DNA of 61,787 nucleotides, counting the filler, from Asterionella formosa (Eukaryota), in the NCBI GenBank assembly GCA_002256025.1. It is 7 parts of 7 records of this genome, joined end to end, with 100 filler letters (N's around TTAATTAATTAA, not from the genome) between each part and the next. Parts side by side here need not be neighbours in the genome. Positions count along the whole stretch, not along the records: positions 44,215 to 52,951 come from NKIB01011748.1; 6 more parts are not named here. One strand, written 5' to 3'. This document shows, piece after piece, positions 46,124 through 51,006 of the stretch. The notes under the pieces are model-generated. The model saw only the letters and a program-made list of their open reading frames with translations. It did no database searches and was not told where the DNA came from. Every line of letters begins with the position of its first letter. Position 1 is the stretch's first letter. Position numbers and translations under genes: made by a program.

Positions 46124-46150
46124 ACACAACCGGAGAATACAATTCTCCAC
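46124..46150 (+). promoter_or_regulatory. H1 3' stem-loop
   Basis: acacaacc GGAGAAT-ACA-ATTCTCC ac, 46 nt after stop. Confidence 0.75.
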
Positions 46151-46653
46151 TCTGCTGCACAAAGAATTATGTATGAAACGGTGGAGTGTTGACAAATTTT
46201 AGGGCCATATCATTTCGTCGGCGTGTGCTTTCGACCTGGGGTTTGCCAAATCTCCCTGAAAGTCGTAAGCCATGTTCTGCTAGTGACATTAATTCAGTTT
46301 GTCGCCCTCATCTCGCGAAAAAAGATGTGATTCTATAGGAATTTGAAACGTACCCGTCTATACTCCAAATTTATGCTTATCAAATTTTCACGAAAGGAAG
46401 AAAACAGAAGACGACTTCCTCATGACAATAGTGGTTAAAGGTGATAGGTACATCGTGAAAATGAATGACTGCGTAACGTGTCGTTATGCCATCATTAGGA
46501 GGGCGAGCAATTTCTACCCGAAGGTGATATAATAATTTTGAGAGGATATTATAATGTAGGTGTTTACTATCAAGGGCGCATCTCATTAATTTTCTCATGT
46601 ATAGGTAATTGACGTTGTATGACTTTATTTCAAGCTTAACGATGCATTTACCA

Positions 46654-47736
46654 TCAAGGGAACGTTTCTTCTCCCTTGTCACTTGTATCTTTCAATCCTT
46701 CCTCTATCGAAGTCATTCCGTTCACAGTCGAATCAGCTTCGCTCTCTCCAGATTCAACGTCCGATGGTGCATCATTACTACCGGTACTTGATTTCACTTC
46801 GAAGAGCTCGGCTTCTATACTATTGGACCTTAGGCGATTTCTGGTGAAAACTCGGAGTTGTTCCACTGGTCCAAGCTTGCTTCGACTTACACGAAGATTT
46901 TCGTCCATGTAAGTTGTGTCGAATGTGCCGGCATTCAAGAATTCGCCTAGGGGAATATTGACGCCCAGGACATCGGCACCGACAGGATCAAGAAATTGAC
47001 TGGTTCCAGCCAAAGTCACTATTCTCGACGTATGAGAGACATTCTTTCAGCATCAAACAACATGCAAGCCCATAACTCTAGTTTACTTACAAATAACGCT
47101 TTCAAGGCCAATCTTGGTCCTCAATACTGGCGTCACGCTCTGAACCGTTGCCTTGTGCACTAGGGTGACTTTTGCTTTGCTAACTTCCAGAGGATTGACA
47201 CTAATAAATTTTAGCACATCCGGCAAACCAACACCAAGAACTTCCATCAAAATGTCGGGAGGCTGAAACTCAATGATATGGTCCACTCGATCAACCACAC
47301 TAGAATCAGTGGTGGATCGAACTCGCTGCTGAACCTTGATGCTACGATTCAAAGTCGCCCTAATTTCCTTCAAAGGTCCTTCGTTGAAGAAGGGTAACTT
47401 GGAAACATCTAGGCCTCCGGAGTTTGTTGCCGTTGTCACAAGCAACGTCCAATCTCCTTGAAACTGCATGTCGTAATCGTCCCGTGTCGGAGCAGTCGCA
47501 ACTGCTTCCAATGTTGAGACTGCCTTTGTCAACTCGTCCTTGGAGGCCTTATCGTACAGAAATATGCCTTGATCTGATTGCAATCGATTCGCAACGTAGA
47601 GCAGATTATTTCTTGCTGCATCGGCGGTTGATAGAGCAAAGATTCGAGAAGTCCATCGACTACTTCCTTGGATCCTGGGCTGAAAAGCACAAACGCCGTG
47701 CAGCAGGGAGAAAAAGAAAACTGCTAAGGATTTCAT
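46654..47736 (-). CDS. Plastid lipid-associated PAP/fibrillin protein; exons 47736-47091 and 47018-46654
   Basis: Signal peptide [32 protein letters not shown]; 72-nt GT-AG intron restores frame (336 aa). Confidence 0.9.
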
Positions 47737-48164
47737 TTTAGAGCTTGCACCTTCTCTGCGAACTTAGGGATATGAAGTCTACTTTGTGCTTTACTCGTGG
47801 ACAGAATAATGATCCATTCGGCACTCCAAAGAATACTATAATGTGTGAAACCAACAACGATACCACCTCCGTGGAGCATGGCATGCTGAAGGAACTAAGA
47901 TTATTCACAGTCCGTAATAGATTTCTTGATCATGACGGCCTGCTGAAGGCAATACTTTACACACGCCCTTGGTGGTCATGCCTGCGAGTAAATAGTAAAC
48001 ATGTGATCGAGGCTGGGTGGCGCGAGTAGGTTGACCGTACGAGTGGCGCCGCCGGCGGCGCGCTCTCCAACATTTAGTACTACGTTCGTCGTCAACCACC
48101 TGATAGGGTAAAGCATTTATAGCTGTGGTGTGCTGGCTGGAGATGCTTTAATCATTGCAAAACT

Positions 48165-48468
48165 TTTGCTAACATTGTTATTATCTCCTCAATATGATAC
48201 AGGAAACTTGGAGAATGTGACTTGTTGGCATTCTTAATGGTAGCAGCAATCAACCATGAGAGCAGAGGTAAGTTATATGCACATTGCATGCTCAAATGCA
48301 AATTGGAGCGAGGAAGTTATATGGATTGTTTATGTGATTGTTTCATTGCACATATGTGGAGATGGCTTCCTTGATGCAACACTTCTGCTAACATTGTTAT
48401 TATCATCTCCTACAGGAAAATGATACAAGAACCTTGGAAAATGTGACTTGCTGCCATTCTTAATGGTT
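48165..48468 (+). repeat. Diverged direct repeat of about 80 bp
   Basis: tgctaacattgttattatc..tgataca.gaa.cttgga.aatgtgacttg.tg.cattcttaatggt occurs twice. Confidence 0.7.
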
Positions 48469-49503
48469 GAATTTTGAATAAAGTGTCATCAATTCCGCTT
48501 TCTCTCTCAGTTCATTTTGAAAAAGCAATGATCTAAACAAACATCGCAACAGGAAGTGAAATTAAAGCATCGAAGGCGACGATTGTGTGCTCATCCTGTT
48601 ATAGGATGCACAATGGAAAGTATGCGTGACCAGCAGTATAATGAAGAGTATTAAATAGCGATCAATTTAATTCGTTTTGTGTTCATTATTGATTGAACAT
48701 GATAATAGCATTGATCAAAGACATGGATTCGTGAGATCAGAAGAAGTAAACATTAGATCGAAAGGTAAAACACAATATGATCACAGGCAGCGCTCCAAAG
48801 GTTAGATCAAATGAATAGTTGATTTGATCTAACGATTACTATCTTTAGATAGTAAACCGAAAAATTAATTGATGATAAGAATAAGAGTGCTGTATTAACA
48901 AAAAGGGTATTGTTTGATCCATTAATATATACATGATGAGTGTAAAATTAAGGCAGAATTATTATTGATGCAATATAGTAAGCAATTGATTGAATATTAT
49001 ATATTGTGTGTATGATCTATGATAAAGGTGTGTGTGATCAATTGTATACAAATGATTGATCAATCAGTTTTTCTGTATGATCAATCAAATTATGATAGGT
49101 CATACTGCGATATTTTGGGGCTGTGGATAATAGAGTAAAACTATTGGGCCTAACGGTTTTTAATTTATAGGCGGTTATAATATCAGTGGGTGAATATTTT
49201 ATTCCTTGCCTGTGCCTGGTAGCATTCCTTCCAAGTTTTGGAAGGAAACAGCAGGTGCAAATGAGATTAATGCCGAAAGTACTTTCTAAGAGGTGTTACA
49301 AGATGAGGTTTGGATGTCAAATGGCAGCACAGGGCCTTGGTCTGACACGAATGCTGCAGGCAGAATATGGATGGGTCACTTGATGGAATAGAATTCTGTA
49401 TTAAATAATTGGCTTTTTTAAATCACAGTCCATGAACGATCTTCCAACTTCTATATCATGACTCTACAAAAGAGGAAGGGAAAAAAGTTTCTTTGGTTGA
49501 AAG

Positions 49504-49530
49504 TGTGGAGTTAGGAAACTCCGGTTGTTT
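49504..49530 (-). promoter_or_regulatory. H3 3' stem-loop
   Basis: aaacaacc GGAGTT-TCCT-AACTCC ac, 50 nt after stop. Confidence 0.8.
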
Positions 49531-49572
49531 GTTGCAGCTGAAAAGTTGCATGGTTGAATGGAAGCAGAATAT

Positions 49573-49983
49573 TTAACTGCGTTCGCCACGGATACGACGA
49601 GCGAGCTGAATGTCCTTTGGCATGATAGTGACGCGCTTGGCGTGAATGGCACAAAGGTTAGTGTCCTCGAACAAGCCAACCAAGTAAGCTTCAGCAGCCT
49701 CTTGGAGGGCAAGAACGGCGGATCCCTGGAAGCGCAAGTCGGACTTGAAATCCTGTGCAATTTCACGGACAAGACGTTGGAAAGGGAGCTTGCGGATGAG
49801 CAAGTCGGTGGACTTTTGGTAACGACGGATCTCTCGGAGGGCGACAGTTCCTGGGCGGTAACGGTGGGGCTTCTTGACTCCTCCCGTGGCAGGGGCACTC
49901 TTACGAGCAGCCTTGGTGGCGAGCTGTTTACGAGGAGCCTTTCCTCCGGTGGACTTGCGGGCGGTTTGCTTGGTGCGGGCCAT
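49573..49983 (-). CDS. H3: Histone H3 (A31, SAVL; replication-type)
   Basis: Full canonical 136-aa sequence. Confidence 0.99.
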
Positions 49984-50269
49984 TTTGAAAATTCTGTGTT
50001 GGAAAGAGAAAGACGAGAACAGTTAGACTGTGACCGATTGGATTATCGTGGGGTTATGTTCGGCCGCGATTGCTTTATTACTCACAATACGATCGCTTTG
50101 GATAGATTATGAGAGAAGCTGCAACATCAACCGAAGAAATACAGCAATACAGTACGGGATCTGAACTGATACTAAAAACACTTTCAAGGAATTTCCTCCG
50201 AGGATTTATCACTTGATTACAGTATCGAATTCCGTTCCGCAATTGTGAGGGAGTAGCATTTAATTAAAT

Positions 50270-50308
50270 TTTGGCGCACCAGATTGTTTTCGTCTGCACA
50301 TTTCCCGC
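50270..50308 (+). promoter_or_regulatory. E2F-consensus sites in the divergent H3/H4 promoter
   Basis: TTTGGCGC at 50270 and TTTCCCGC at 50301 match TTTSSCGC. Confidence 0.45.
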
Positions 50309-50498
50309 TAGTTGGGCGCGAAGAAAAATAAATTGTGCGCCAGAATCGAAACAATCCAAGGTGTGTACGATTCTACAGGAGGTACGATGAACCAGAATGA
50401 AACAAGCCACTTCCATACTGCATTTGATCGATGCTACATACAAGGCTAAGCTCATAATTCGCTCAAGCGTTACAATCAAAAACCTCAAATAATCAAAC

Positions 50499-50937
50499 AT
50501 GTCTGGTAAGCCTAAGTTTCCGAACAAGGGAATACAACAGTCCACACCGATAGGCAACCTCCCATTGAGTTCGACAGTTGATTACATCCAAAACATGCAC
50601 TGACCATTTCTCGTCTTCACTCACTGTAACAGGAAGAGGAAAAGGAGGAAAGGGACTTGGAAAGGGAGGAGCCAAGCGTCATCGCAAGGTCCTTCGCGAC
50701 AACATCCAGGGAATTACCAAGCCCGCTATTCGTCGTCTTGCCCGTCGTGGTGGTGTTAAACGTATTTCTGGTTTGATTTACGAAGAGACTCGTGGTGTCC
50801 TCAAGGTGTTCCTCGAGAACGTCATTCGCGACGCCGTCACCTACACTGAACACGCCCGTCGTAAGACTGTCACTGCCATGGACGTTGTTTACGCCCTTAA
50901 GCGTCAGGGCAAGACCCTTTACGGTTTCGGAGGTTAA
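50499..50937 (+). CDS. H4: Histone H4; exons 50499-50505 and 50633-50937
   Basis: ATGTCTG|gtaag..cactgac..aacag|GAAGAGGA gives [19 protein letters not shown]. Confidence 0.99.
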
Positions 50938-50980
50938 ACAACCAGTTACCACCAACCACAACAATGAGGCTTTTGGCCGC

Positions 50981-51006
50981 AAACAACCGGAATTTTACAA
51001 TTCCAC
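50981..51006 (+). promoter_or_regulatory. H4 3' stem-loop
   Basis: aaacaacc GGAATT-TTAC-AATTCC ac, 51 nt after stop. Confidence 0.8.

Follow-up and report, generated by a model that had tools for sequence, protein, structure and literature searches.

The stem-loop of animal histone mRNAs, together with the histone downstream element (HDE), is read by SLBP, the U7 snRNP (small nuclear ribonucleoprotein) and CPSF73, the U7 snRNA (small nuclear RNA) pairing with the HDE. Histone stem-loops outside animals were reportedly described by Davila Lopez and Samuelsson in 2008; since their paper may already list diatom hairpins or a diatom SLBP, no priority is claimed here. We describe a stem-loop with conserved flanks and a fixed downstream motif that follows the histone H1, H3 and H4 genes of the diatom Asterionella formosa (assembly GCA_002256025.1). 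The three copies were found in a stretch of 61,787 bases, which as a whole is called the window below; the part bearing them comes from NKIB01011748.1. In our judgement they are probably the 3'-end processing and regulatory signals of replication-type diatom histone mRNAs, homologous to the animal stem-loop and HDE.

According to the accessible part of a 2026 survey (bioRxiv 10.64898/2026.10.14.759114), stem-loops are found downstream of histone genes in many protists, and SLBP-like proteins are widespread among them. The same text reports homologues of Lsm10 and Lsm11 in stramenopiles, regards a loop U3 as diagnostic of binding by SLBP, and characterizes the stramenopile stem-loops as 'typically positioned further downstream' and of 'reduced sequence conservation'. 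For early-diverging fungi it describes histone mRNAs that bear both a stem-loop and a poly(A) signal. This combination is also described in the available text on Physarum (PMC8600027), in which canonical histone genes have both introns and stem-loops.

In the literature searched there was no report of a histone stem-loop, an SLBP or a U7 in diatoms, and the supplementary tables of the survey may list diatoms. Histone papers on Phaeodactylum and Ectocarpus, in their accessible text, make no mention of stem-loops, hairpins, polyadenylation or replication-dependent histones. Histone stem-loops outside animals are already known, and the diatom element is a well-supported further case. It resembles the protist systems in that SLBP-type stem-loops after histone genes have been kept outside animals, and the system of Physarum in that intron-containing histone genes bear stem-loops. 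It differs from the stramenopile stem-loops, as far as the accessible part of the survey describes them, in lying near the stop codon (46-51 nucleotides (nt) in the window, 46-104 nt in relatives) and in that, on every histone class, its flanks are conserved and CAAAGA follows downstream at a fixed position.

Three stem-loops behind histone genes of Asterionella formosa

All three elements lie in the 3' untranslated region (UTR) on the sense strand and have the common layout ACAACC-GGA..stem/loop..UCC-AC. After H1 (46126..46150, plus strand) the flank ACAACC (46126-46131) is followed by the hairpin GGAGAAT-ACA-ATTCTCC (46132-46148) and by AC. After H3 (49505..49528, minus strand) ACAACC (49528-49523) precedes GGAGTT-TCCT-AACTCC (49522-49507) and AC, and after H4 (50983..51006, plus strand) ACAACC (50983-50988) precedes GGAATT-TTAC-AATTCC (50989-51004) and AC (51005-51006). 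The distance from stop to stem is 46 nt for H1, 50 nt for H3 and 51 nt for H4. The original prediction for this DNA had reported a motif with fixed flanks 46-51 nt after these stops, and its hairpins were found exactly as written. The motif on H1, H3 and H4 is real.

The exact 9-mer ACAACCGGA has three copies in the window, at these three sites only; when one mismatch was permitted, 11 matches were obtained, including the three histone sites. A composite pattern of 39-40 nt was then defined as the flank, GGA..TCC, AC, N9 and CAAAGA. It matches the window three times, always on the sense strand after a histone stop, and no match of any kind was present in 100 dinucleotide shuffles. Viral contigs, which match the flank pattern by chance, served as a pairing control; among these matches at least six consecutive pairs were formed by 11 of 97 distinct hairpin segments, compared with three of three in the window.

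The H3 and H4 hairpins have a stem of 6 base pairs (bp) and a loop of 4 nt, as do all 12 copies from relatives described below. The H1 hairpin has 7 bp and a 3-nt loop, with an alternative fold of 6 bp and a 5-nt loop. The loops read UCCU (H3), UUAC (H4) and ACA (H1), two of the three starting with U. Folding energies were -7.8 kcal/mol for H1 (z -2.65; 4 of 200 shuffles as stable) and -7.7 kcal/mol for H3 (z -2.90; 3 of 200). These three differing hairpins stand inside a single histone cluster of 5 kb.

A further conserved block, CAAAGA, was found 11 nt past the stem in all three genes, at identical spacing and without having been selected for. It was seen in an alignment of the 3' flanks of the three window genes (A1), which is gap-free from the 5' flank to CAAAGA save for one loop position, the H1 hairpin having 17 nt instead of 16. 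The block reads CAAAGAA after the H1 stem (46160..46166, plus strand) and the H3 stem (49489..49495, minus strand) and CAAAGA after the H4 stem (51016..51021, plus strand), and in each case it belongs both to the conserved part of the alignment and to the match of the composite pattern. Purine-rich and set at a fixed distance, it looks like an HDE in place and composition. CAAAGA is an addition to the earlier observation on this DNA and, like the loop divergence in A. formosa, a modestly new detail.

Beyond CAAAGA the flanks are T-rich (46167-46175; 49440-49488 on the minus strand; 51022-51060). The sequence TT(A/T)TGT is common to all three, as TTATGT after H1, TTTTGT after H3 and TTTTGT twice after H4. 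One possible role for this downstream stretch is in termination, another that of an auxiliary element.

Copies in diatom contigs and covariation of the stem

One metagenome scan with the composite pattern resulted in 38 loci. A perfect hairpin with 6 bp and a 4-nt loop is present in 11 of them (GGATTT-TCTA-AAATCC in ten, GGATCT-TTTA-AGATCC in L157), and all 11 continue with ACCC, six bases and CAAAGA. Eight of the 11 follow histone genes on the same strand, namely H2A (L122, L151), H2B (L125, L134) and H3 (L142, L153, L156, L157). In the other three (L121, L146 and the pattern-derived copy of L128) the sequence upstream is shorter than 110 nt; L121 agrees with L156 at every one of 66 nt, and the L128 copy has the H2A 3' UTR flank in common with L122. 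None of the 11 loci has a non-histone gene upstream of the hairpin. The remaining 27 loci correspond to five distinct sequences with only 3-5 consecutive pairs and are bacterial-type chance matches. They stem mostly from one repeated gene, two of the source assemblies are labelled as human-gut metagenomes, and the five representatives inspected contained no histone open reading frame (ORF).

A separate hairpin scan, in which the pattern was not used and a GG..CC base was selected, added two copies. One is located 60 nt after the intronless H4 gene of L128, has the flank ACAAAACC and carries CAAAGA 10 nt past the stem although the pattern had no part in its discovery. The other follows a lysine-rich, H1-like ORF in L125. 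The spacing between stem and CAAAGA is thus 11 nt in the window and 10 nt in the relatives.

In the relatives the stem starts 46-104 nt after the stops of H2A, H2B, H3 and H4 genes, and the loops UCUA, UUUA and UCUC keep U at positions 1 and 3. Thalassiosira-like contigs bear one identical hairpin on H2A, H2B, H3 and H4. Judged by their sequences, the histones of these loci are diatom proteins: the H2A of L122 is identical to Thalassiosira oceanica proteins, the H4 of L128 is the Ochrophyta H4 (B7FX68_PHATC), and the H2B cluster contains Mediolabrus, Pseudo-nitzschia and Thalassionema entries. Absence of the motif from other histone genes and from relatives had been named beforehand as one of the observations that would refute it; instead, the motif was found after H2A, H2B, H3 and H4 genes in diatom contigs. 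Across diatom sequences the element occurs on all five histone classes, is histone-specific and is sense-oriented.

The end of the H1-like ORF of L125 is followed on the minus strand by two tandem hairpins about 100 nt apart (~852-835 and ~731-716). The first, GGACTTT-TATA-AAAATCC followed by ACCCC, is degenerate with one C-A mismatch, and the second, CCAACA-GGATTT-TCTC-AAATCC-CCCC..CAAGA, is perfect.

The three window hairpins were aligned with the 12 copies from relatives (10 pattern-derived, two from the hairpin scan). In this alignment of 15 rows (A2) 76 of 76 cells pair (100%), and pairing falls to 34-78% when the registers are slid. The loop gap introduced by MAFFT misregisters the sixth pair, and GGA/TCC is fixed by the search pattern in the pattern-derived rows. 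Stem position 4 is occupied by UA in 12 rows, GC in two and AU in one, and stem position 5 by UA in 13, AU in one and CG in one; the covariation score was reached by none of 500 shuffles. The compensatory stem changes that had been noticed in the window alone are therefore supported by covariation at these two positions. The first two pairs are G-C in 15 of 15 rows, being pattern-fixed in 10 of the 12 rows from relatives, base-selected in two and free in the three window copies.

A covariance model (R1), run with filters off over the 61.8 kb, scored H3 at 60.1, H4 at 58.2 and H1 at 43.7 bits as the sole strong sites; by construction, these window sites form part of the model, as do the 13 strong hits in the loci. 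Over 100 loci it found no further copy, the best score of the control loci being 21 bits. A fourth match in the window (19271-19335, 20.2 bits) was rejected, having no hairpin and lying in a repeat-protein region.

These data also bear on whether the element acts as RNA at all. Its core is an inverted repeat around CCGG, and in a scan for terminators of bacterial type the strand opposite to the hairpin was flagged for H1 and H3, as would be expected of a DNA-level palindrome serving as a transcription-factor or terminator site; chance similarity could be invoked as well. The asymmetric flanks, however, always run in gene sense, in three of three window genes and in eight of eight relatives with an identified gene, the stem letters change while pairing is kept, and the shuffles are devoid of the composite pattern. 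We regard such explanations as highly improbable, and both the chance and the palindrome readings were rejected on the basis of the covariation, the viral-contig pairing control and the 0/100 shuffles.

The animal consensus and the putative readers

The comparison with Rfam Histone3 (RF00032, gathering score 34 bits) proposed along with the original prediction was carried out. On nine of the relatives' loci the model gave 11 hits of 23.3-36.0 bits (E 1.8e-7 to 1e-2), one of them above 34. In a search of 91 nt the window H3 hairpin scored 24.2 bits (E 3.2e-5), RF00032 being the sole Rfam family to match. Rfam searches over the whole window and over 7 kb returned no Histone3 match; this is a filter effect, because the H3 hairpin does score in the 91-nt search. 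From the matches of the diatom relatives and the 24.2 bits of the window H3 hairpin it follows that the element is a divergent member of the SLBP-type signal and not a new class.

The likeness to the animal system extends to several features. The element follows H1 and core histone genes in sense orientation, inside the 3' UTR, and a 26-nt box would start 41-46 nt after the stop, the animal range being 25-60 nt according to the accessible survey text (10.64898/2026.10.14.759114). Also alike are the GG..CC stem base with a G-C second pair, the A/C-rich 5' flank, the 3' flank AC(C)C, the 6-bp/4-nt geometry in H3, H4 and all relatives, and a purine-rich element about 10 nt past the stem. The differences begin at stem position 3, which is A instead of a pyrimidine in 15 of 15 sequences (GGA being pattern-fixed in the pattern-derived rows), unlike GGYYYU. 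Directly beside the stem the 5' flank is CC in 14 of 15 and CA in one, not AAA. In addition, the window loops have no U at position 3, H1 forms 7 bp with a 3-nt loop, the window scores remain under the gathering score, the H4 gene contains an intron, and one cluster holds three hairpins. A departure from the animal consensus had been predicted, and the A at stem position 3, the CC flank, the loops UCCU, UUAC and ACA and the 7-bp/3-nt hairpin of H1 bear it out.

From this divergence a lineage-specific reader had been proposed, that is, a protein other than an SLBP orthologue acting on a stem-loop outside the SLBP-type consensus. The missing loop U3, the H1 geometry, the A at stem position 3 and the flank ending in CC all fit such a protein, as do the blindness of RF00032 to the window H4 and H1 hairpins and the three hairpins per 5-kb cluster, compared with the one identical hairpin of the Thalassiosira-like contigs. 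Yet the flanks, the GG base, the 6/4 geometry (two of three genes) and the downstream element are common to the diatom relatives, whose hairpins match RF00032 and have U at loop positions 1 and 3. The window H3 hairpin for its part hits no Rfam family but this one, and SLBP-like proteins are widespread in protists (10.64898/2026.10.14.759114, accessible part). Because the relatives keep both loop uridines and match RF00032 (E 1.8e-7 to 1e-2), the most economical reader would be an ordinary orthologue of SLBP; a lineage-specific one is not required, and we consider it very unlikely.

A milder form of divergence can be proposed more readily, albeit tentatively. Diatoms may possess the complete SLBP and U7-type machinery, with YCAAAGA at 10-11 nt, and in this freshwater diatom the specificity of the reader may have been relaxed or shifted. 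It is conceivable, if doubtful, that the loop U3 and the 4-nt loop are dispensable there and that mainly ACAACC-GGA..UCC-AC is read, which would make this a natural variant of SLBP-RNA specificity. The three hairpins of the 5-kb cluster offer a natural experiment on which SLBP contacts can be dispensed with.

For the element as a homologue of the animal signal, the following mechanism can be envisaged. The nascent transcript would form the hairpin with its GG base between a 5' flank of ACAACC and a 3' flank of AC(N)C, and an SLBP orthologue would occupy the stem base and flanks; binding of the hairpin by SLBP is likely by analogy with animals. A second factor would bind the CAAAGA that follows at 10-11 nt. 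The most likely candidate would be a U7-like snRNA, acting through its 5' end as part of an Lsm10/Lsm11 snRNP, although for U7-type recognition of CAAAGA we see the chances as even. The factor bound to CAAAGA would place a CPSF73-type nuclease, which would cut a few nt past the stem. Cleavage just 3' of the stem and without polyadenylation is predicted with somewhat better than even confidence. The mRNA would thus end in the hairpin and not in a poly(A) tail, and bound SLBP would tie its translation and decay to S phase.

Several observations weigh against this homology and the mechanism built on it. The H4 hairpin is unremarkable by energy alone (-4.6 kcal/mol, z -0.38; 68 of 200 shuffles as stable), all three window hairpins are without the loop U3, the H3 hairpin is 10 bits below the gathering score of RF00032, and 91-nt searches with this model matched neither the H4 nor the H1 hairpin at E up to 10. 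The conservation of CAAAGA and GGA/TCC in the 11 loci exists by construction, since both are part of the search pattern, and the covariation rests on few events because there are only about five independent stems. No U7 was matched by Rfam in the window, and a U7-like regular expression (TCTTTG followed by an Sm-like run) yielded no credible candidate in the window and the metagenome loci. Among 24 sequencing runs listed, 23 of them recorded as RNA, poly(A)-selected lake metatranscriptomes and unselected cDNA libraries each contained 0.45 of the region's sampled words, a figure that reflects word shares only. In a Phaeodactylum time course, as far as its accessible text goes, poly-A-enriched RNA was used and core histone transcripts were abundant (PMC5156380). 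The word shares and the Phaeodactylum data are compatible with polyadenylated histone mRNAs.

The last points feed the main rival explanation, in which the SLBP-type site has been kept but cleavage and polyadenylation of the mRNAs take place farther downstream, so that the stem-loop acts as a stability or translation element of the 3' UTR. CAAAGA would then be the site of another protein or belong to a poly(A) signal of non-AAUAAA type. Precedents exist in Physarum (PMC8600027) and in early-diverging fungi (10.64898/2026.10.14.759114), where, in the accessible texts, stem-loop and poly(A) signal stand together. In the 300 nt that follow each of the three stops we found no A[AT]TAAA, which is weak evidence for unpolyadenylated ends because diatom poly(A) signals are, in the accessible part of PMC11529991, short UAA-type motifs. 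On the other hand, a 6-nt element at exactly 11 nt (three of three in the window) or 10 nt (relatives) fits a ruler of the U7 type and not a poly(A) site, stramenopiles have homologues of Lsm10 and Lsm11 (10.64898/2026.10.14.759114, accessible part), and the word shares of the libraries may come from a neighbouring gene or from leak-through. Downstream polyadenylation, with either role for CAAAGA, appears unlikely to us. The Phaeodactylum core histone transcripts are also reported, in the accessible text, to peak with S phase (PMC5156380).

Diatom histone genes of all five classes are shown to have a well-conserved, stop-proximal stem-loop, a sharper picture than the distal and poorly conserved one in the accessible part of the survey. 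The fixed CAAAGA predicts a diatom U7-like snRNA in which a 5' UCUUUG is accompanied by an Sm site and a terminal hairpin, and this UCUUUG would be a precise sequence handle for U7 snRNA outside animals. Diatom histone mRNAs may moreover be under-counted in poly(A)-selected transcriptomes, and expression constructs for diatoms could be given an S-phase-coupled 3' end in the form of the 40-nt element.

Histone genes, introns and other features of the window

The H1 coding sequence (45399..46085, plus strand; stop TAA 46083-46085) is a single ORF of 228 amino acids. Residues 2-66 match Pfam Linker_histone (E 1.8e-14), and among the Atlas clusters the protein comes nearest to one of linker histones, with Bacillariophyta as its commonest phylum. 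The H3 coding sequence (49573..49983, minus strand; stop 49575-49573) is intronless and encodes 136 amino acids, with H3.1-like A31 and S87-A-V-L90 and a Pfam Histone match of E 2.1e-48; L142 and L156 encode an identical H3 protein. H4 is transcribed divergently from H3. A splice reconstruction gives a first exon ATGTCTG (50499..50505, plus strand), a putative GT..AG intron of 127 nt (GTAAGC..ACAG, 50506..50632) and a second exon (50633..50937, stop TAA 50935-50937) with histone-fold Pfam matches. The spliced sequence encodes a full canonical H4 of 103 amino acids, which differs by one residue from that of the intronless diatom H4 gene in L128.

Introns had been predicted for both H4 and, probably, H1. 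The H4 intron is confirmed by the logic of the sequence, its removal restoring the 103 residues. The H1 part of the claim did not hold for the coding sequence, which is uninterrupted, with the globular domain beginning at residue 2; an H1 intron would only be possible in the 5' UTR, where 45187-45390 (204 nt, GTGAGG..CAACAG, seven ATG triplets inside) is an unverified candidate. Introns and hairpin coexist in the relatives too, since in L157 a GT..AG intron precedes the final 13 codons of the H3 gene. The contrast drawn earlier with the intronless histone genes of animals is nothing special either, intron-bearing genes with stem-loops being described in the accessible text on Physarum (PMC8600027).

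H3 and H4 share a divergent promoter region (49984..50498), which contains TTTSSCGC at 50270-50277 and 50301-50308 and GCGCCAG at 50337-50343. The two TTTSSCGC sites, which are 31 nt apart, account for two of the nine in the window. Three of the four GCGCCAG in the window are found here or upstream of H1 (45055-45061, 45096-45102). Neither count is significant window-wide. We take TTTSSCGC to be the E2F consensus, and the two motifs are possibly S-phase (E2F-type) promoter elements.

In the putative H1 5' leader, 45122-45128 reads CCAAAGAATC; this heptamer is also the downstream element of the H1 and H3 hairpins, which is probably a coincidence. The complement of CAAAGA in this leader (45132) is one of the two matches of the U7-like regular expression in the window; both were discarded for want of a U7-like Sm site with a terminal hairpin behind it.

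Upstream of H1, 44531-44796 is a nearly perfect inverted repeat of about 265 nt that looks like a miniature inverted-repeat transposable element or a foldback element; Rfam MIR821 matches it on both strands with 82-83 bits, far under the gathering score of 249. A two-exon gene on the minus strand (46654-47736) lies between H1 and H3. Its second ORF resembles PAP_fibrillin at the Pfam cut-off (22.0 bits), and a gene of this type fits a plastid-bearing alga. Also in the H1-H3 intergenic region, a sequence of about 100 nt is directly repeated, its two copies lying close together (48138-48241 and 48357-48467; 79-88% identical, spacing 219-226 nt). N runs (44 + 44 around 12 bases) occur at 8747-8846, 17592-17691, 26434-26533, 35274-35373, 44115-44214 and 52952-53051, that is every ~8.84 kb, a regular spacing that has the look of masking or scaffolding and not of biology. 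Elsewhere in the window, pieces of a Ty1/copia-type retroelement are found at 24691-26433 (minus strand), 40990-42655 and 43542-44162, with RVT_2 matches of E 6e-5 and 2.7e-7, both under the Pfam cut-off, and a gag-like ORF with a CCHC zinc knuckle.

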